In this document: positions 9,589 through 58,165 of the stretch, in pieces
How positions within the stretch are numbered: position 1 is the stretch's first letter
Layout of the letters: every line of letters starts with the position of its first letter
Source: Terriglobia bacterium
GTDB lineage: Bacteria > Acidobacteriota > Terriglobia > Versatilivoradales > Versatilivoraceae
Assembly: GCA_041476565.1 (NCBI GenBank)
Contig: JBGOTQ010000004.1
Coordinates: 1 to 62,746 of the forward strand
Direction: 5' to 3'
Length of the DNA stretch: 62,746 bases
Notes under the pieces: generated by a model
Database searches by the model: none
The model's input: the letters and a program-made list of their open reading frames with translations, nothing else
Told to the model about the DNA's origin: nothing
Program-made: the position numbers and the translations under genes

Positions 9589-10467
9589 ATGGTTCTGGAG
9601 GTCCTAATGGACAGTCTCGAGAAAACCTATTTCATGCATCAGATGGCAAGCATTATCAATTTCCTTTTTGAAACTCGAGCTCTAGTGCAGTTTCTTGGCC
9701 TGATAGTCCTGATGGGCGCAAGCTCATCTGTTTACTTGGCACCACCACGCATGCAGGTAGCGGATTGGCGGCATTACGGGGGTGATGCGGGGGGAATGAG
9801 ATACTCACGACTCGATCAGATCAACAAGAAAAATGTTTCCCAACTCCGCGTTGCCTGGACCTTGTATCAGCCCGTAGGAGAGAAAAGCATGGTGCTGTTT
9901 CCGGGGCTGAACGGAGGAGCCAACTGGGGAGGCGCATCCTTCGATCCGTTCTCTGGGGTGTTGTTTGTCAATTCCATGGATGTGGGCGGACTCTTCCGCC
10001 TGGTGAAGCGTTCGGAGGAAGCTGGACTCCCCTTTGCCCTGCGTGCGGCGAGATTTGAGTTTTTCTGGGATTCCAGAGGCTATCCTTGTCAGAAGCCCCC
10101 CTGGGGTTCGTTGACCGCCATCGACCTGAACACTGGCGAGTTTCGCTGGCGGGTACCCTTGGGTGAATTCGATGAACTAAAAACCCGCGGTGTGCCGAAG
10201 ACGGGAACTCCGAATATTGGGGGATCGATGGTGACTGCCGGAGGACTTCTCTTCATTGGCGCAACCAACGACAGCCGCTTTCGTGCCTTTGACAAGGACA
10301 CAGGGGAAGAACTGTGGGTAACACGGCTTCCTGCCAGCGGGATGGCTTCCCCGGTTACCTACCAAGGTTTGAAGACCGGCAAGCAGTTAGTGGTAATCGC
10401 GGCCGGAGGTGGAAATAAGTACGACAAGACTTTCACTGGGAAGTTGGTCGCTTATGCATTGCCTTAA
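9589..10467 (+). pseudogene. PQQ-dependent glucose/quinate dehydrogenase with large in-frame internal deletion
   Basis: N-terminal DWRHYGGD..RYSRLDQIN..VAWT is joined directly to the C-terminal FPGLNGGANWGG..PCQKPPWG..AAGG part. Confidence 0.8.
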
Positions 10468-14296: not shown

Positions 14297-15676
14297 TTAA
14301 GGGCCCACGGTCAGCGTAAAAAGGTTATCCTGCCCGTTCTTCTCCGAGAGATGAATTTTAAAGCCTCGAAGCTCTCCTTGGGGGGTCTTCAGCAGAATTT
14401 CGTATTCCCCATAAAACCCTCGAAAATTGAGGCGACCGTCTCCGGCGGTTGTGGCCGTCAGTCGGGTTTCCCACTCCTGGTGAACGAGTCGCATCAAGCG
14501 GCGGTAGACAGGCTTGGGTTCGTATTCGGCAGTAACCAATCCCCCTCCCGGTTGCCAGGCATCTCGATCGGAGAACCCCCACCAGTTGATTACCTCCACG
14601 GCTGGATGCCCGAAGGCCAGTCGGTAGATCTGCTCAGCATAGTCGGCTTGGCTCTCTTCGCTCCAACGTCCTTCGCGCCAGCCGCCGGCGATGGGTTTGC
14701 CGGAGGACTGGGGGATGAACTCAGTGATTTGCAGCGGGTCGCCCAGTGAGCCCAGTAGATCCAGCGTCTTCACCACCTCTTCAGGCGGGAACCAGGCATC
14801 CAGTGGTTCGTGGGTTTGAATCCCTAAGGCACCAATCGGAACAAGCCCGGCTTTGAGTTTTTGCACGAGACTTAGAAACCTCTGGCGAACCTCCGGCTTC
14901 ATGATTTGGTAAAACTCATTCAGCACCAACGTGGCTTGAGGATTAGCGTGGTGGGCCATCCGGTAATAGGGGGCGATCCAGCGGGCAATCTCATCTACAG
15001 GAATAGATCGATAGCGGGTTCCCTCGTTTTCTGATGGATCTGCATGAGCCATCCGCCAGGAAACAGTATTGACGGGTTCGTTAACAATGTCCCAGATATT
15101 AATCTTGCCTGCCAAGCCCAGAACGGTGCTGGTCACACGTGCCGAGAGCAGTGTCTCGGTCATTTCCACCGGGAGAAGATAAAGCCACCGAGGCATGCCA
15201 GCCGGATTCGTCCAAACCAACGGGTGGCCTTTGAGAGTGATGCCATTTGCCAGGGCCCACTCAATCACGCCCGCTTGTCTTGGCCACTGGGGCATTCCGG
15301 CAGTTGGTTCATAGCCCTCCCAATAAAAGGGCAACACTCCCATGTTGAATAGAGCTTTGAATCGTTCCCTATAATCCTCTACACGGTATGGTTCGCTACC
15401 CGCATGGCTCACCAAACCAAATAACAAAGCTCCAAATAAGAAATCATGGGTCTTCTGGCGAATTTCAACGTTGACTCCGGACAGGGGTTGACCATCCCGC
15501 GTTTTGAAGGTTAACCACGCATCCCCTTTCCGGAATTTCTCCGCCCCATCAGCCGCTTGTTTCAATAGGCGCGATTCGACTTCCGCAATCTTCGCCTGCT
15601 CGATTGAGGTTGCTAAACTGATGGGAACAACTAAAAGGGCCCACCCCAACGTGAAAGCAAGGGAGCTAAGAGTCAT
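14297..15676 (-). CDS. Glycoside hydrolase family 10 (endo-xylanase-like), secreted
   Basis: KGHPLVW, WDIVNEP (acid/base), LQITEF (nucleophile); signal peptide. Confidence 0.88.
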   Translation of the reverse strand: MTLSSLAFTLGWALLVVPISLATSIEQAKIAEVESRLLKQAADGAEKFRKGDAWLTFKTRDGQPLSGVNVEIRQKTHDFLFGALLFGLVSHAGSEPYRVEDYRERFKALFNMGVLPFYWEGYEPTAGMPQWPRQAGVIEWALANGITLKGHPLVWTNPAGMPRWLYLLPVEMTETLLSARVTSTVLGLAGKINIWDIVNEPVNTVSWRMAHADPSENEGTRYRSIPVDEIARWIAPYYRMAHHANPQATLVLNEFYQIMKPEVRQRFLSLVQKLKAGLVPIGALGIQTHEPLDAWFPPEEVVKTLDLLGSLGDPLQITEFIPQSSGKPIAGGWREGRWSEESQADYAEQIYRLAFGHPAVEVINWWGFSDRDAWQPGGGLVTAEYEPKPVYRRLMRLVHQEWETRLTATTAGDGRLNFRGFYGEYEILLKTPQGELRGFKIHLSEKNGQDNLFTLTVGP

Positions 15677-21912: not shown

Positions 21913-21993
21913 TGTAGGGCGCTTTTATAAAGCGCCATCTCAGCGCCGGTTGATACAACCGCCCTACCCCCCCCTCCAAGACTGACCCGGTAC
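21913..21993. repeat. GTAG-type REP pair abutting an IS66-like inverted-repeat end
   Basis: TGTAGGGCG..CGCCCTAC inverted pair, then AGACTGACCCGGTAC (21979-21993); related copy at 40828-40875. Confidence 0.65.
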
Positions 21994-32649: not shown

Positions 32650-32734
32650 GTGTCGTAGAAAACAAGCTTATCCCCTGAGCGGAATATCTATAGGACTTTT
32701 TATCTGCTGGCACAAGCGCAATTAAAGGGAATCG

Positions 32735-32848
32735 GTACTGGGTCAGTTAAACGGGGAATTTTGGAGGGCTGAGCTCCGCAAAGCCGCAGACAACTTGGCA
32801 CACGTGGCCTCGCAGAGCTCGGCCCTCCACTTGTAACTGACCCATTAC
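32735..32848. mobile_element. 114-bp IS66-like MITE with 8-bp target duplication
   Basis: TIR GTACTGGGTCAGTTA / TAACTGACCCATTAC (14/15); GGGAATCG at 32727-32734 and 32849-32856; a further end GTAGCGGGTCAGTTAC follows at 32857. Confidence 0.85.
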
Positions 32849-32997
32849 GGGAATCGGTAGCGGGTCAGTTACAGCATGAGGTGTCTACGGGGAAATCCCG
32901 GGGCCGGACATAAGAGATGATATAGAGACCGGCCTGGTGGTGGCTCGCAGGCAGTCTTAACGGTCCCGCTCACTAGTTGCATGACACAAGCATCGAC

Positions 32998-40769: not shown

Positions 40770-40893
40770 AGTAGGGGGATCTTATCTTGTGGATTTGTTT
40801 CAATTCAAGCTCAATCCTTCTCATCTGGTATTGGGCCAGTCTGGGGGGGGCTGTAGGGCGGTTGTGTCAACCGCCTAAGCATGCTCCATCCGC

Positions 40894-48710: not shown

Positions 48711-49058
48711 TCACTTCAAGTACTGTTGCAGCCAGCGGAGCGCATGGCCGATCATCAGAACTTGATTCTCGCGCCGGCCGGCACCGTGCCCTTCCTCAGC
48801 GAAGATAATCGGCTCGCTGGGAGCTGACGTTTTCTTTGCTGCCTCGTACATTTGGATGGCTTCACCTACAGGCACGCGAGGGTCGGTGGCGCCCTGGGTG
48901 ATGAGCAAAGGCGCCTTGAGCCGGTCAATGTAGGTGACCGGCGATAGTTGGATCAGGGCATCCTTGTCTTTTTCCGGGTCGCCATACTCGGAGATGCGGA
49001 GAATGCGGCGATAGGGACCCGTGTTATTGAGGAAGGTGAGAAAATTGGAAATGCCGAT
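48711..49058 (-). pseudogene. C-terminal fragment of an S9 (prolyl oligopeptidase family) peptidase
   Basis: GISNFLTFL..EYGDP..QGATDPRVP..EGHG; the catalytic Ser region is absent. Confidence 0.85.
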
Positions 49059-49248
49059 GGGTCTCTTGGGCCATTAGCTCCGCCATGCTGATGAACAGGG
49101 CAAAAGCGAGAACTGATTTTCCCGGCATCATGCTGGTGTAACTGACCCATTACGATTGACCCGCGCAGCTTCCTGGACTATAGTACTCAATACTATGGAA
49201 GGGTGATTCGGACGACTGTACTCATAAAGAAAGAGGCTGGGGACGATT

Positions 49249-51878: not shown

Positions 51879-52106
51879 GTACTTGGTCAATTAAACGGGG
51901 GACAGGAGAAAACGGGAGCCACCACCCATCACTGAGAAGGTGTGAAGAAATTGAAAGATGGATCCTTCCGGCAATAAGCGTGCGCGGGAGCACCCGCCCC
52001 ACTCAGGTGGAACGCGCGCTCCGCGCGCGTTTTCAGCCGTGGTTCAGAATCCGAGCGGGGTCTGGGCTGCCCCGCTTTGATTTTTTCACACCTTCTGACC
52101 TATTAC
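51879..52106. mobile_element. IS66-like MITE whose right end is interrupted by a second MITE
   Basis: Left end is 20/22 identical to 32735-32756; right end CACTGA|CCTATTAC is split; flanks TGGATTTT and TCGATATT (6/8). Confidence 0.7.
51936..52095. mobile_element. 160-bp MITE with GAAGGTGTGAA TIR and TGA duplication
   Basis: GAAGGTGTGAAGAAAT / ATTTTTTCACACCTTC (15/16); TGA on both flanks. Confidence 0.82.
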
Positions 52107-52345
52107 TCGATATTGAAATTAATTTCTCCACTGAAATCATGGTCCGACGCTCCAACTCACCATTCTGCAATTCCAAGTGCGGCTGGAGACACCGTGCCCT
52201 CCCGGCGCTGACTGGAGGTTAGGTTGGCGGGATGAGGGCATCCCACCTCCAATTACCTGTCACTGTTTGAACTGCATGCTTTTTTGACCTTATGATTCCT
52301 CCTTGAGCTAGAATTCAGTATGGCTTTGGCGCAAGGACAACTCCT

Positions 52346-54535
52346 ATGAAACCAAAGGAATACGTTTTCAGCCGTAGGGACTTCCTCAAATCTTCGGCCC
52401 TGGCTGGTGTGGCGGTTGGGACCGGAGGCGTTCATGTGACGATTCCTGAAGTTCAATCTTCAGCAAGCCAGACCTGGTTCGACAAACCCATGCGCTGGGC
52501 CCAGTTGACGCTGGTGGAAAACGACCCGGGTCGCTATGATCCTCAGTTCTGGTTGGATTATTTTAAACGGACTCATTCCGATGCGGCCTGTCTCAGTGCG
52601 GGAGGGATCGTAGCCTATTACCCGACCCAAATTCCGTTACACCATCGCAGCGCCTGGTTGAAAGACTCTGATCCATTCGGTGAGTTACTGTCCGGCTGCA
52701 GAATGCTAAACATGTACGTTCTGGCGCGTACTGATCCCCACGCTGTTCGCCAGGTTGTTTACGATGCTCATCCTGACTGGATCGCCGTCGATGCCGAAGG
52801 TCGCAAACGACGACACTGGGCCAATACTGACTTATGGGTCACATGTGCTCTAGGCCCCTACAACTTTGAATTCATGACGGTGGTCCACCAGGAGATCATG
52901 ACGCTTTACAGGGTGGACGGCATTTTCTGCAATCGCTGGGAGGGGCACGGCGACTGTTACTGCCAGCATTGCCAGAGCAACTTTCGCGCGGCGTGTGGCA
53001 TGGAGTTGCCGAGCACCTCGGATCCGCTCGACCCGGCCCGCCGCAATTATCTGGTCTGGCGCCTGCAGCGATTGACAGAACTGGTGCGCTTGTGGGACAG
53101 CGCAATTCGCAAAATCAATCCGCAAGCCCGCTTTGTTCCCAACGGCTTCCCGGATTTGAAAGTTGCAGGCGAACTGGCGGATATCCTGTTTATTGACCAT
53201 CAGGGGAGGCGCGGTCTCACGGCACCCTGGGCCAATGGAAGTTCAGTGAAGGAATACCGAGCCACCCTGGGACGCAAGCCAATTGGGGGCATTTTTAGCG
53301 TCGGACTGGAGGAACCCTATCGTTGGAAAGACTCGGTCCAGAGCGAAGCCGAAACTCGAATCTGGGTTGCAGACGGTATCGCCAATGGCATGAGGCCCTG
53401 GTTTACCAAATTCTCGGGAACACTCTATGACAAACGCTGGCTCAATGTAGTAGAGGACATTTATCGACGGCATTACCATATCGAACGCTATCTGCGCAAT
53501 GAAGCGCCACTGGCGCGAGTGGGGATGGTTTATTCAGAACAGACTCGCGAGTACTACGATGCTTCCCGCCCCCAGGCTCGAAACGGAGAACATGAACTGG
53601 GGATGTACCAAGCTCTCATCGAGGCCCGCATCCCCTTCGAGAAGGTGCATGACCGTCTGCTCGACAAGGCCCATCTGGACCCCTTCAAACTTCTAATCCT
53701 CCCCAACATCGCAGCCCTCTCGGATGAGCAGTGTCACTCGCTAGAAGCTTATGTTCAACGCGGAGGGAGTCTCCTGGCCACGCTTGAGACATCGCTTTAC
53801 GATCAGTGGGGAGTGAAGCGCAAAGATTTTGGACTTTCCGAGCTCTTCGGGGTTTCCTGGAAAGGCAAGCTGGAAGGCCCCATGCAGAATTCGTACCTTG
53901 GCTTGAATCCGGACCCGGCCTCAGCGAAATTCCACCCTGTCCTGGCTGGTTTGGAAGATGCCACACGAATCATCAATGGTGTTTGGCGCCTGGAGGTGGA
54001 ACCGCTCGCCAATTTCCCTTCCCCGCTTACCTTAATACCGTCCTATCCGGACTTGCCTATGGAAGACGTCTATCCGCGTGTTCCCCGCACGACAATTCGC
54101 GAACTCTATTTGCGAGAACTGGGTCAGAGCCGCATCGTCTATTTCCCCTGGGATATAGACCGAACCTTCTGGGAAGTCCTCTGCGTGGATCATGCAAGGT
54201 TGCTACGCAACGCCATCGAGTGGGCGACAGATGAAGAGAGACCTGTCACCGTGACTGGGCCAGGAATCTTGGATGTCTCCCTCTGGCGGCAGAAGGAATC
54301 CATGACCGTCCATTTGGTCAACCTGACCAACCCTATGATGATGAAGGGACCGATTCGTGAGCTGATCCCACTGGCTTCACAGCGGGTGAAGGTTCGGCTT
54401 CCCCAAGGGAAGATGCCTAAAAAAGTCCAGCTTCTGGTCAGTGGAGACCCTCCCCAAACGAGCGAAGCAGCGGGACTCTTGACCGTTCTGGTACCTTCGA
54501 TTTTGGACCACGAAGTCGTCGCGATTGATTTCTGA
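52346..54535 (+). CDS. Tat-exported putative glycoside hydrolase (GHL6-like TIM barrel + beta-galactosidase trimerisation domain)
   Basis: SRRDFLK; DGIFCN, CYCQHC, LLILPNIAALSD. Confidence 0.8.
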   Translation: MKPKEYVFSRRDFLKSSALAGVAVGTGGVHVTIPEVQSSASQTWFDKPMRWAQLTLVENDPGRYDPQFWLDYFKRTHSDAACLSAGGIVAYYPTQIPLHHRSAWLKDSDPFGELLSGCRMLNMYVLARTDPHAVRQVVYDAHPDWIAVDAEGRKRRHWANTDLWVTCALGPYNFEFMTVVHQEIMTLYRVDGIFCNRWEGHGDCYCQHCQSNFRAACGMELPSTSDPLDPARRNYLVWRLQRLTELVRLWDSAIRKINPQARFVPNGFPDLKVAGELADILFIDHQGRRGLTAPWANGSSVKEYRATLGRKPIGGIFSVGLEEPYRWKDSVQSEAETRIWVADGIANGMRPWFTKFSGTLYDKRWLNVVEDIYRRHYHIERYLRNEAPLARVGMVYSEQTREYYDASRPQARNGEHELGMYQALIEARIPFEKVHDRLLDKAHLDPFKLLILPNIAALSDEQCHSLEAYVQRGGSLLATLETSLYDQWGVKRKDFGLSELFGVSWKGKLEGPMQNSYLGLNPDPASAKFHPVLAGLEDATRIINGVWRLEVEPLANFPSPLTLIPSYPDLPMEDVYPRVPRTTIRELYLRELGQSRIVYFPWDIDRTFWEVLCVDHARLLRNAIEWATDEERPVTVTGPGILDVSLWRQKESMTVHLVNLTNPMMMKGPIRELIPLASQRVKVRLPQGKMPKKVQLLVSGDPPQTSEAAGLLTVLVPSILDHEVVAIDF

Positions 54536-54814
54536 TTTCCTCTTGATCTAGGCAAACGCAATTACCAATAATCTCAATGACAAAGCTTAACGCCTTCGCC
54601 AAAAAGCGAAAATTCCCAGGAGTCTCCCCAAGATTCCCATGAGCAGATAGTGGGCCGTCGCTGGACCTTGATCCATCAGGAAGATCTCATTTCCTAGTCT
54701 TTCTTCCAGGGGGATCCTCCCCCTTCTGCCGATTGGCATGCCTTCCAATGGATGTTATGTTTTCAAGGTACAGAACAATAAGCTCTCTCACTAGTAAAAG
54801 CCAGGAGGCACGAA

Positions 54815-55750
54815 ATGGAATCTATATCAGCGGGGAACGACACTACTTTAGTCGATGTTTCAGATAGTCTTGCCAAGTATGTGGAACAAGTGCTGCAAGC
54901 CACCGTTGCAGTGAATGCGCGTGAGCACTTGCCTTCAACCGGTGTTCACTGGCAGCAGGGAGTGATCGTTACTGCTGCCCACACCGTTAAGAAGGATGAG
55001 GATATCACGGTCTCCCTTCCAGATGGGCACACGATAGCGGCCACATTGGCTGGCTTGGACCTTGGCACCGACCTGGCGGCACTAAGGGTCGATTCCGGGG
55101 AACTGCCTGTGGCAAAACTGGGCAATTCGTCCACGCTCAAGTTGGGCCAAATTGTTTTGGCTGTGGGGCACGGAGGCAATAGGGGTCATTTTGCGGGTTT
55201 AGGAATTGTGGGCGGGTTAGGGGGACCGTGGCGGACCTGGCGAGGCGCCCAGATTGATAGGTTTATTCGTCCTGATCTTTCCGTGTACCCTGGTTTCTCC
55301 GGAAGTACGTTAGTTAACACCCAGGGTTTGGTTGTCGGGATTAATACAACCGGGTTGTCCCGCCGGACGCCCTTGTCGATTCCCGCCTCTACCGTCCAAC
55401 GCGTGGTTGAAGAGCTGCTCAAAAAAGGAAGAGTCGCCCGGGGGTTCCTTGGTGTGGGGCTACAGCCGGTGTATTTGCCCGATTCTCTTAAACACAAGTT
55501 GAACCTGGAAAGGCAGAATGGTGTCATCTTGCTGGGAGTCGAGCCGGACGGACCAGCGGATAAAGCTGGTTTCTTGATCGGCGATGTGTTGCTGGACCTT
55601 GACGGCAAGCCGATGGCCAAGATCAGCGATGTGCAAGATATATTAGCCCCTGAGTATGTCGGTAAGACTGTCAAGGCCTCGTTGATCCGGGCTGGCAACT
55701 CGGTGGAGTGTTCCATCACCATCGGAGAACGACCGGGCAACAAAGACTAA
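54815..55750 (+). CDS. S1C (HtrA-like) serine protease with PDZ domain, cytoplasmic
   Basis: TAAH, TDLA and PGFSG triad motifs; GFLGV..GPADKAG..GD PDZ. Confidence 0.9.
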   Translation: MESISAGNDTTLVDVSDSLAKYVEQVLQATVAVNAREHLPSTGVHWQQGVIVTAAHTVKKDEDITVSLPDGHTIAATLAGLDLGTDLAALRVDSGELPVAKLGNSSTLKLGQIVLAVGHGGNRGHFAGLGIVGGLGGPWRTWRGAQIDRFIRPDLSVYPGFSGSTLVNTQGLVVGINTTGLSRRTPLSIPASTVQRVVEELLKKGRVARGFLGVGLQPVYLPDSLKHKLNLERQNGVILLGVEPDGPADKAGFLIGDVLLDLDGKPMAKISDVQDILAPEYVGKTVKASLIRAGNSVECSITIGERPGNKD

Positions 55751-55797
55751 TCGAGTTCTTGTCCGCCTGCCTAAAGGGCAAACAAGGAAACACCCAA

Positions 55798-56100
55798 GTG
55801 ATTCGTGTTCTGGTTAATGCCACGTCCGATGTTGTCCGTGCCGGGCTGGAGTCCATGCTCTCGGCGGCACCTGGTATTTCTGTAGTAGCCAGTGCGATCG
55901 GGCTCGAGAGAATCGCTTCGCAGGTTGAAGAGTTGCAGGCTGATGTCGTCCTGGTCGAATTGCCTGCCGATGAACCCCTGTCAGGCCTACTCGATCTCAA
56001 CTCAAGAATGCCCGACTTGGGGGTCGTATTGTTGGTGGACGACTCAGATGGCCGCAGAACGCTGGAAGCGCTGCGTTCCGGAGTCCTCACGCTCCTCTCG
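55798..56100 (+). pseudogene. Truncated NarL-type response regulator (receiver part only)
   Basis: IRVLV..VVRAGLESML..ADVVLVE..ALRSG; no HTH follows. Confidence 0.7.
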
Positions 56101-56210
56101 AGAAGTTACTGGGAATGGGTCCGGTTTTGTCTTTACACCCGATGGGTCCATTTGGGAATGCTAAAATGTCAGACTATTGTGTCGTTGAATTCGAGTAGGA
56201 GAAAAAAGTC

Positions 56211-57179
56211 ATGGAGAGCCTTCGCCCCCTGGGTTGCTCACAGATCGCCATTTCCGCCATCGGCCTGGGATGTTGGCAGTTTTCTGAAGGGTTTGGGTTT
56301 GCAGGACGTTATTGGCCGCCCCTGCCTCAGGAGACTGTGAACCAAATTGTCGAGGCCAGCCTCACTGCCGGGATCACATGGTTTGATACCGCGGAAGTTT
56401 ACGGTAGAGGACGTTCCGAGGCCGCTCTTGCCAGGGCACTGATTGCCGCCGGCAAAAAGAACGGCGACGTGGTGATCGCTACCAAGTGGTGGCCCATATT
56501 GCGCACGGCAGGCAGCATCAAGGCGACGATCACTGAGCGCCTCACGCGTCTCGCGCCGTTTGGCATCGACCTGTACCAGGTCCACCAGCCGTTCGCCCTG
56601 GCCTCGACTGTTGCTCAAATGCAGGCCATGGCCGATCTTGTCGCTGGGAAAAATATTCACACTGTGGGTGTGAGTAACTTCTCAGCTGGCAAGATGCGTG
56701 CAGCACATCAGGCTCTCGCCGCAAGGGGAATCCCACTCGTTTCCAACCAGGTACCTTACAGCCTCCTGAATCGCAGGATCGAGACCAATGGAGTCCTGGA
56801 GGCCGCCAGGGAACTCGGCATTACAGTCATTGCTTACTCGCCGCTCGCTCAAGGGATTCTGTCGGGAAAATTCCACCAGGATCCGAACCTCATCCGCTCT
56901 CGGCCCGGCCCCAGGAAATGGATGACGTCGTTCCGGCGCGGCGGCCTCGAGCGCAGCAGACCCCTGGTGACGGCGCTCAAAGAGATCGCTCGGGAGTATG
57001 GTGCCACGGCGTCACAAGTGGCACTTAATTGGCTGGTACATTCTAACGGAGACGTAGTGGTGGCCATCCCCGGAGCCACGAGTGTCACGCAGGCAGCGGA
57101 GAACGCTGGGGCCATCGGCTTCCGTCTTAGCGCCGTTGAACAAAAGCGGCTCGAGGAGCTTTCGAGACTGTTCCACTGA
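56211..57179 (+). CDS. Aldo/keto reductase
   Basis: IGLGCWQF, DTAEVYG, DLYQVH, GVSNF, YSPLAQG. Confidence 0.92.
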   Translation: MESLRPLGCSQIAISAIGLGCWQFSEGFGFAGRYWPPLPQETVNQIVEASLTAGITWFDTAEVYGRGRSEAALARALIAAGKKNGDVVIATKWWPILRTAGSIKATITERLTRLAPFGIDLYQVHQPFALASTVAQMQAMADLVAGKNIHTVGVSNFSAGKMRAAHQALAARGIPLVSNQVPYSLLNRRIETNGVLEAARELGITVIAYSPLAQGILSGKFHQDPNLIRSRPGPRKWMTSFRRGGLERSRPLVTALKEIAREYGATASQVALNWLVHSNGDVVVAIPGATSVTQAAENAGAIGFRLSAVEQKRLEELSRLFH

Positions 57180-57211
57180 CATGCATCTCTCAACACCAAG
57201 GTACCAGGACA

Positions 57212-57658
57212 CTAAGAAGACAGCAGGGAAACGACCTTGGCAAGCCGGCGCAGGTGCCGCTCGGCTTGACTGAAGTCGGCTGTCAGGAAGGCCTGGACGA
57301 GGTCCCAGGCAACTTCCGGTCCCACTGTCCGCCCGCCCATACAAAGGATATTCATGTGGTCGTCCTCGACCCCTTGACGGGCCGAGAAGTGATCTTGAAT
57401 CAGGCTGGCGCGGACGCCTGGGACCTTGTTGGCGCAAACCGAGGCGCCCACCCCGCTGCCACAGATCGCCACGCCGCGTTCCACCTTCCCCGCCGCCACG
57501 GCTTGGGCTAGCGGGATGACGAAGTCGGGATAGTCGTCGCCTGGGGTCAGGCTGTGGGCACCGAAATCAACGACCTCATGCCCTGCCGCACGAAGCCGCG
57601 TAATCATCTCTTCCTTTAAACCAAAACCACCGTGATCGGTGGCGATTCCTACACGCAT
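57212..57658 (-). CDS. rpiB: Ribose 5-phosphate isomerase B
   Basis: ATDHGG, DDYPD, CGSGVG, ANKVPG, ERHLRR. Confidence 0.93.
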   Translation of the reverse strand: MRVGIATDHGGFGLKEEMITRLRAAGHEVVDFGAHSLTPGDDYPDFVIPLAQAVAAGKVERGVAICGSGVGASVCANKVPGVRASLIQDHFSARQGVEDDHMNILCMGGRTVGPEVAWDLVQAFLTADFSQAERHLRRLAKVVSLLSS

Positions 57659-57692
57659 GGATGGCTCTCCTCGGCCGGCTGTTTTCTTTCTT

Positions 57693-57831
57693 ATAAAAAT
57701 GCGAGTTTTGGTAGCCACGCCGACCGCTTTTTTCCGGGAAGCGTGGGCTTTTGGTTGTTAGAAAGAAGCCCACGGTTTGCGACGACTGCTGTCGCCAATA
57801 CGCTCACCGTGGCTACCCCTCCCATTTTCAT
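57693..57831. repeat. Double-hairpin repeat, inverted copy of 39174-39318
   Basis: CGAGTTTTGGTAGCCACG..CGTGGCTACCCCT..TTTTCAT. Confidence 0.75.
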
Positions 57832-58002
57832 CGATCGTGTTGACCTGAAAAAGGTCATGCGAAACTCCTATGAAAACGCGCGATTGAAGGTGGACGCCGC
57901 GCTCTATCGCGGCGTTTCTTTCCAACATTGAAAAGCCACGAACCTGGATATCGGTTCCGTACTTCCACAGATAAAGCGCCGTACGGCCCCCCCCAAGACT
58001 GA

Positions 58003-58130
58003 GAAGGTGTGAAAAAATCCCATCGGGCGTATGGACATGCTACGGTAGGATGGTACTCCGCGTCCGGGTTGGGTTTCCGATTGCGGACGCGCGGCAGTGC
58101 ATCCCAACCCTTGATATTCTTCACACCTTC
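58003..58130. mobile_element. 128-bp MITE with GAAGGTGTGAA TIR and TGA duplication
   Basis: GAAGGTGTGAAAAAAT / TATTCTTCACACCTTC; TGA at 58000-58002 and 58131-58133. Confidence 0.82.
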
Positions 58131-58165
58131 TGACGCAATACGTGCTTAGAGTGGCGCTTGCCGAG

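Follow-up and report, generated by a model that had tools for sequence, protein, structure and literature searches.

Two places in a 62,746-nucleotide stretch of DNA from a Terriglobia bacterium (contig JBGOTQ010000004.1; the window) raise the question of whether one family of miniature transposable elements with inverted repeats (MITEs) homes to the terminal repeat of another. In both, a short element with GAAGGTGTGAA ends (the inner element) is lodged within the end-repeat of a different short element (the outer element). We analysed the window, which is contig C4 of a 7.55-Mb assembly in 566 contigs (G000), together with the rest of this genome and with related genomes. The best explanation as a whole, to which we give a probability of about 0.85, is that MITEs mobilised by an IS1182-family transposase home to a fixed site in IS66 ends.

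The first nest, at 51933-52098, reads TGA, GAAGGTGTGAA...TTCACACCTTC, TGA, and is followed by CCTATTAC at 52099-52106. The second has the same layout of TGA, GAAGGTGTGAA...TTCACACCTTC and TGA at 58000-58133, followed by CGCAATAC at 58134-58141. In each case 8 bp separate the insert from the outermost base of a GTAVTGGGTCAGT-type end, and removing the insert with one TGA restores that end as it stands intact at 32836-32848 (0 mismatches). The interiors of the two inserts are unrelated and fall into different BLAST clusters. All of this agrees with the first-pass annotation, made from the letters of the window alone, which had described two GAAGGTGTGAA-ended inserts duplicating TGA at one and the same position in an outer end, with unrelated interiors. 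The four intact ends to which it pointed were also recovered. The features concerned are as follows.

51879..51932, + strand: IS66-type outer MITE with a short ‘type 1’ body, comprising the end-repeat GTACTTGGTCAAT on the left and that part of the body which precedes the insertion point; it matches the type-1 flank TCAGTGATGGGTGGTGGCTC of 6 other occupied copies
51879-51891: partner end of this first outer element, from a pattern search with ACTGACCNANTAC
51933..51935, no strand: left TGA copy of the 3-bp target duplication, read from the window sequence
51936..52095, no strand: inner MITE, IS1182-derived, subfamily beta (BLAST cluster 2), 160 bp, ends GAAGGTGTGAAGAAAT / GAAGGTGTGAAAAAAT
52096..52098, no strand: right TGA copy, read from the window sequence
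52099..52106, + strand: 8-bp tip CCTATTAC of the outer right end-repeat, severed by the insertion; the rebuilt 16-mer has 3/16 mismatches to GTAATGGGTCAGTTAC
57980..58002, + strand: remnant outer MITE body of the C-run type (CCCCCCCCAAGAC) with the left TGA copy at 58000-58002; this body type is shared with 21970-21993, 40828-40850 and C156:3816-3922
58003..58130, no strand: inner MITE, IS1182-derived, subfamily gamma (BLAST cluster 1), 128 bp
58131..58141, + strand: right TGA copy (58131-58133) and 8-bp outer tip CGCAATAC; the rebuilt end has 5/16 mismatches
32735..32848, + strand: intact, unoccupied outer MITE, IS66-type, 114 bp, the empty-site reference, flanked by the 8-bp duplication GGGAATCG, identical in its two copies (32727-32734 and 32849-32856)
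49141..49153, + strand: intact outer end ACTGACCCATTAC, 0 mismatches
21981..21993, + strand: intact outer end, 1 mismatch
40828..40840, - strand: intact outer end, 1 mismatch

Both kinds of end are over-represented in the window. The inner 11-mer, at up to 1 mismatch, has 5 matches against 0.99 expected, a number attained in 0 of 100 shuffles; its 4 exact matches are the ends of the two inserts. For the outer pattern ACTGACCNANTAC, at up to 2 mismatches, there are 18 matches against 8.9 expected, again attained in 0 of 100 shuffles. Contigs from run X1 bridge both junctions of the insert at 51936-52095; as this run is possibly the source sample itself, it does not count as independent support.

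We searched the whole genome for the 16-mer GAAGSTGTGAAAAAAT at up to 2 mismatches and found 100 inner ends, which pair into 35 complete elements of 54-254 bp with 3-bp duplications; these counts and those that follow for this genome are lower bounds, as such repeats often sit at contig ends. As many as 26 of the 100 ends face outward onto any three nucleotides followed by a sequence within 2 mismatches of CCCATTAC, where the ceiling is about 50%, since one end per element can face a tip. The same flank follows only 1,007 of 264,338 genomic TGA sites (0.38%; binomial p about 7e-40). Rebuilding the empty sites, as the first-pass annotation had proposed, led to the same result: 17 of the 35 complete copies restore GTAATGGGTCAGTTAC with at most 5/16 mismatches and 19 with at most 6, against 0.46% and 2.0%, respectively, of 264,241 TCA sites. 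With single ends included there are 30 occupied tips, three of which (C126, C363 and C69) are dubious.

These insertions are not copies of one event. BLAST clustering separates the inner interiors into three unrelated subfamilies, alpha, beta and gamma, and the 19 events lie in 12 outer contexts, giving 16 distinct combinations of inner subfamily and outer context. Indeed, the two window cases already differ on both sides, the first having beta within an outer body of type 1 and the second gamma within one of the C-run type, so that descent from a single composite, which the first-pass annotation had named as fatal to its idea, does not apply to them. The 16 combinations therefore indicate independent insertions, and spread of a single composite cannot explain the pattern. 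The annotation's central proposal, a MITE homing to a fixed site in the end of another MITE, is thus borne out well beyond its two cases.

The inner family has the properties of MITEs, being short and non-coding, with inverted ends, a target duplication and many copies. The genome holds two truncated transposase remnants associated with ends of this type. The first (C183:10280-11104) lies about 200 bp inside an inner-type end at 10083 (GAAGGTGTGAAAGATT), which abuts the outer tip GTGATGGGTCA; the second (C155:15484-16302) lies about 200 bp inside an inner-type end at 15306 (GAAGCTGTGAATAAAT), in a copy cut by the contig end. Both match PF13751 and PF01609. Against the IS1182 model NF033551 they score 210 and 195 bits, below the cut-off of 270 because they are truncated, the matches covering model positions 244-487 only (the C-terminal half). 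Full-length relatives in related genomes are 1,990-2,050 bp long and encode transposases of 507-525 amino acids, two of which (L017, 525 amino acids; L021, 507 amino acids) reach 402 bits on the same model. The left end of the 2,050-bp insertion sequence (IS) in G007 and G004 (L017 and L013; also L094-L096) is exactly the 16-mer GAAGGTGTGAAAAAAT. Judged by these sequences, the inner elements are classed as MITEs of an IS1182-family IS. The autonomous IS with these ends, which the first-pass annotation had asked for, is thus found in relatives with an identical 16-bp end, and in the genome itself only as the two truncated pieces.

The same annotation had seen a third tier in the system, a cargo resembling repetitive extragenic palindromes (REPs) carried inside the inner MITE. 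This part is not supported. Among the BLAST hits to the interiors, 59 of 62 carry at least one inner terminal inverted repeat; hits without an inner end number 2 of 13 for beta, 0 of 15 for gamma, 0 of 19 for alpha and 1 of 15 for alpha2. The interiors hardly ever occur apart from the inner ends, and are ordinary MITE subfamilies.

The GTAVTGGGTCAGT end bounds small bodies of about 75, 107 and 114 bp. Among 22 intact outer pairs, 17 have flanks identical at 6 or more of 8 positions, four of them perfectly, compared with 1 of 22 when the flanks were taken 12 nt further out as a control. We considered whether the outer family could be REPs or bacterial interspersed mosaic elements, which lack a target duplication and depend on RAYT-type enzymes, and rejected this: the 8-bp duplications show that the outer elements are transposons, not REP-type repeats. 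A related genome (G008) contains a 2.5-kb element (L071) with outer-type ends at positions 17 and 2516, GTAATGCGTTAGTTACGGGGGG, whose 542-amino-acid open reading frame (ORF) scores 252 bits on the IS66 model NF033517 (cut-off 180). Classical IS66 elements also have the accessory genes tnpA and tnpB; the ORF of 324 amino acids upstream in L071, compared with NCBIfam, had no match. The inner elements of G008 sit directly at GTAATGCGTTA, the same end as that of the 2.5-kb IS66 element. From these similarities we class the outer family as IS66-type, in keeping with the ‘IS66-like’ label given at first sight. An IS66 element with outer ends was not found in the genome itself, where one weak PF03050 match, on C288, has no outer ends nearby.

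Some IS66-type outer MITEs directly adjoin one another. The GGGAATCG duplication at 32849-32856 runs straight into a second outer-type end (window 32849-32869), and at C504:4062-4082 the duplication GTAAACGC does likewise. It is possible that the IS66-type element prefers sites beside its own kind.

The nested arrangement extends across genera and to a second bacterial family. Junctions of outer tip and inner end (up to 2 mismatches) number 25 in G000, 7 in G001, 11 each in G008 and G016, and 9 in G010. With the pattern reversed as a control, these five genomes have no match and the 31 genomes searched have 1 (in G018); single junctions at up to 2 mismatches in G019, G007, G023, G020 and G045 were left uncounted. 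Class-wide, 11 of 301 genomes have a stricter degenerate junction, 6 from the family of the window and 5 from a second family, with 0 in the controls; two genomes of the second family (G253 and G293) are unpublished, and the count without both is 9 of 299. The duplication at the junctions in other genomes is TCA or TTA, and the copies of G108, a genome from the second family, measure 119-120 bp and have a TCA duplication. One remnant junction is common to C260 of G000 and C730 of G001, with the same flank, which shows that some events predate the split of these species. In G008, a 120-bp inner MITE (L049, on C51) has outer-type tips on both sides, GTAATGCCTCA and TGCGGCATTAC, as though its insertion site had been a minimal tip-to-tip palindrome.

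The following mechanism would account for these observations. Non-autonomous GAAGGTGTGAA-ended MITEs of three interior subfamilies would be mobilised in trans by an IS1182-family DDE transposase, which would pick its target by local DNA sequence or shape and make cuts staggered by 3 bp, leaving a 3-bp duplication around each copy. The GAAGGTGTGAA-end lineage strongly prefers T-N-A at positions 9-11 of the IS66 end-repeat (GTAATGNN/TNA/GTTAC), usually in one orientation, while a sister lineage with GAAGCTGTGAA ends mostly enters GC-rich hairpins and duplicates CCC, AGG or CCT. Insertion parts the 8-bp outer tip from the rest of the end-repeat and probably immobilises that end. The data themselves show how the nests are built, that this site is enriched, that the events are independent, to which families both elements belong and that the nests extend over several genera; that a protein recognises the site, why one orientation predominates and what becomes of the outer element are steps that we infer.

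Several points weigh against homing by IS1182-mobilised MITEs. No intact autonomous copy of IS1182 or IS66 was found in the 566-contig assembly, so present-day mobility is not demonstrated, and many of the duplications are decayed, which indicates that the events are old. The same-genus genome G001 offered no empty/filled pair, as its orthologous intergenic region differs in content and has no outer MITE. Likewise, among the public runs, covered as Logan contigs, no contig skips the inner element: joints that appeared to skip 126 nucleotides are other family members, and an X3 contig extends 29 nt past the right junction, under the 31-nt threshold. Four of the 35 complete copies lie in other TGA sites, far from the majority that the first-pass annotation would have taken as disproof, and 12 in non-TGA sites; site specificity is a strong preference, not absolute. 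Orientation shows a moderate bias, at 7:2 for alpha, 4:1 for beta and 8:2 for gamma, with a combined p of about 0.025 that takes into account that the majority orientation was picked post hoc; in hairpin targets, beta is in one orientation in 4 of 4 cases.

The nests could instead go back to one ancestral composite, inner within outer, copied about the genome by the IS66 transposase. All three beta copies in outer ends do share one outer body type (type 1), and composite spread may have contributed for this subfamily. As a general account it is highly improbable, given the 16 combinations among 19 events and the recurrence of the same junction with diverged tips (GGG, GCG, GCC and GTG) and TCA or TTA duplications in other genera and in the second family; a split outer end-repeat should, moreover, hinder mobilisation. 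Only marginally less improbable is survivorship, where the inner MITE would insert at any (C)TGA and selection would purge the harmful insertions, leaving outer elements as a safe haven. A few copies of one close alpha sub-lineage do lie in unrelated TGA sites (C67:21186 and C88:6598), and the age of many nested copies, judged from their decayed duplications, would suit it. However, all 19 events are at positions 9-11, although these positions account for only 33 of the 77 TGA/TCA sites within intact outer MITEs, and thousands of other intergenic TGA sites exist. Purging would likewise leave the orientation bias unaccounted for, and the IS remnant on C183 and the full-length relatives have equally narrow targets. 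Even the seemingly free insertion at C44:21898, outside any recognised outer MITE, is in a look-alike of the target (5/16 mismatches).

A more serious rival, if still an unlikely one, is purely structural recognition. In this view, which has been proposed for IS1272, extruded cruciforms or hairpins are what the transposase attacks, and the outer MITE would be hit for the long stem that its two end-repeats make, not for its sequence. PMC4923244 and PMC5678879 describe IS1272 and TnSha1, of the same family, entering hairpin stems with little sequence conservation. Sister lineages here enter hairpin stems or loops, and the intact outer MITE at 32735..32848 folds as a long hairpin (z = -4.7). Elements able to form such a hairpin are, however, not enriched among the targets: 10 of 30 occupied tips have a detectable partner outer end, compared with 24 of 61 intact ends, which gives no sign that a whole-MITE hairpin is required. 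The position hit and its T-N-A are constant over diverged tips and genera, and a 3-bp duplication that lies in one arm lacks symmetry about the axis of the MITE. Local sequence recognition is thus favoured over pure structure, at odds that we put at roughly 60:20. An apparent preference for A at tip position 4 was dropped, because the ‘intact’ comparison set was pattern-biased to A and still contained occupied ends. RNA-guided targeting, as in the IS110/IS1111 elements IS4321 and IS5075 that home to Tn21-type ends, shares with our case the fixed position in the end of another transposon. This resemblance is one of behaviour only, and such a guide is extremely improbable here: the enzyme is assigned to DDE transposases of the IS1182 type, not DEDD, terminal inverted repeats and duplications are present, and three subfamilies with unrelated interiors share the site, so that no element-borne guide is conserved.

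Not all inner-type elements of this genome favour IS66 ends. Some 11 complete copies, most of them GAAGCTGTGAA-ended, lie within GC-rich hairpins, where the duplicated bases are CCC, AGG or CCT. The end variant tracks the target: elements with G/G ends lie in TGA-type and other sites at 14:1, those with C/C ends at 5:8 (Fisher p = 0.0036), and the two remnants fit this split, the G-type copy on C183 being in an IS66 end and the C-type copy on C155 in a C-rich site. In relatives, all six full-length copies of G002 are in CCCCTCC-loop-GG/AGG/GG hairpins, the target of L014 in G017 is CCCCTCC..GGAGGGG as in G002, and that of L012 in G007 is CCCCCCTT..AAGGGGGG. More distant members (L099-L103, L105 and L106) sit in hairpin loops with duplications of 4-7 bp. 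Palindromic or hairpin targets, reported for some IS1182 members, are thus found in this clade, although our search for relatives used one protein and returned 13 loci, so that the wider target range of the clade is thinly sampled.

The closest full-length GAAGGTGTGAA-ended relatives, L013 and L020 in G004 and L017 in G007, lie 6-9 nt from the tip of another repeated element (L082-L093), of about 780 bp with AACGCCGCACTGTTTAC-type inverted ends. Matches to AACGCCGCACTGTTTAC number 21 in G004 and 11 in G007, against 3 and 6 in the control; the tip was placed by eye and the sample is small. In 4 of 4 copies whose IS end could be identified (L013, L020, L017 and the C183 copy) the transposase-distal end (IRR) faces the tip. 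A tentative suggestion is that this Acidobacteriota clade of IS1182 might consist of dedicated end hunters, hyperparasites whose protein would read the terminal repeats of other transposons and insert at a set distance from the tip, one and the same IS end pointing outward. Two targets fit such a habit, the IS66 ends in two bacterial families and the ~780-bp element of G004 and G007. If so, the insertions would disable the host element and offer a harmless landing pad.

Comparison with known systems shows which parts of this behaviour are new. Some IS1182 members target palindromes, according to PMC4923244 and PMC5678879, which cite Siguier 2015. These sources also describe the IS1182-family elements IS1272 and TnSha1 of staphylococci as selecting inverted-repeat or hairpin targets, with the same target hit repeatedly. 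The likeness to our elements lies in the transposase family and the hairpin targets. The difference is that IS1272 makes no duplication, deletes part of the hairpin and is reported to have little primary-sequence specificity, whereas here we find a clean 3-bp duplication, no deletion, a fixed sequence position, a transposon end as the target and mostly MITEs. Hairpin targeting in the IS1182 family is therefore already known; new are the IS66 end as a target, the fixed position with its clean 3-bp duplication, the occurrence as MITEs and the way in which the end variant goes with the target. Our full-text literature search found no report of IS1182 elements targeting IS66 ends, and none of a DDE transposase targeting an IS66 end with a 3-bp duplication and an orientation bias; Siguier 2015 and ISfinder/TnPedia may bear on the point.

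The first-pass annotation had compared the nests with IS4321 and IS5075. As an analogy of behaviour this stands, since these elements also seek out one set position within the end-repeat of other transposons (the 38-bp ends of the Tn21 family). They are not known to make a duplication. Membership among the IS1111/IS110 hunters of terminal inverted repeats fails on both enzyme and end structure, our elements having a DDE transposase of the IS1182 type, by its sequence, together with terminal inverted repeats, a 3-bp duplication and no sign of a guide. According to PMC11187229 and PMC11208160, the enzyme of IS4321/IS5075 (IS1111 group) is a DEDD recombinase with a seekRNA or bridge RNA. Insertion sequences that target REPs, such as ISPpu9 of Pseudomonas putida, land in abundant repeated palindromes and so spare genes (PMC12288879). 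They enter REPs rather than transposon ends, and ISPpu9 is a member of the IS110 family. The main target here is a transposon end-repeat; the sister lineage, with its hairpin targets, comes closer to them. In plants, MITEs are found nested inside other MITEs. These prefer short motifs, such as TA or TAA, in AT-rich elements, and are not known to favour one fixed position in a specific end-repeat.

The nests offer a clean natural example, in bacteria, of one transposon targeting another by means of a DDE enzyme. Among bacterial end hunters, the only well-known ones rely on an RNA guide. The results suggest that IS1182-type transposases can evolve narrow, lineage-specific targets, be they GC hairpins, hairpin loops or the end of another element, and that target choice tracks small changes in the element's own ends, which makes target choice in the family testable. 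For annotation, they account for a composite repeat common in soil Acidobacteriota, whose nests should be treated as two elements, not one.

Other repeats lie near these features in the window. At 49032-49153 an inner-like end, GAAGGTGAGAA (1 mismatch), is found 122 bp from an intact outer end, which may be a chimeric or truncated element or chance. Just to the right of the first nest, at 52195-52260, there is a hairpin repeat, GGAGGTTAGG..GGGCATCCCACCTCC; sequences of the form GGGACATCCC..CCTCC that resemble it flank hairpin-type insertions elsewhere, for example at C41:26932. Position 57823-57872 holds a conserved motif of ~48 bp (consensus CATTTTCATCCGCGGTGGTGAACTTGAAAAGGTCATGGGGCACTTTCAT) with about 125 copies genome-wide, each preceded by a different GC-rich hairpin; its opposite strand could start a short ORF.

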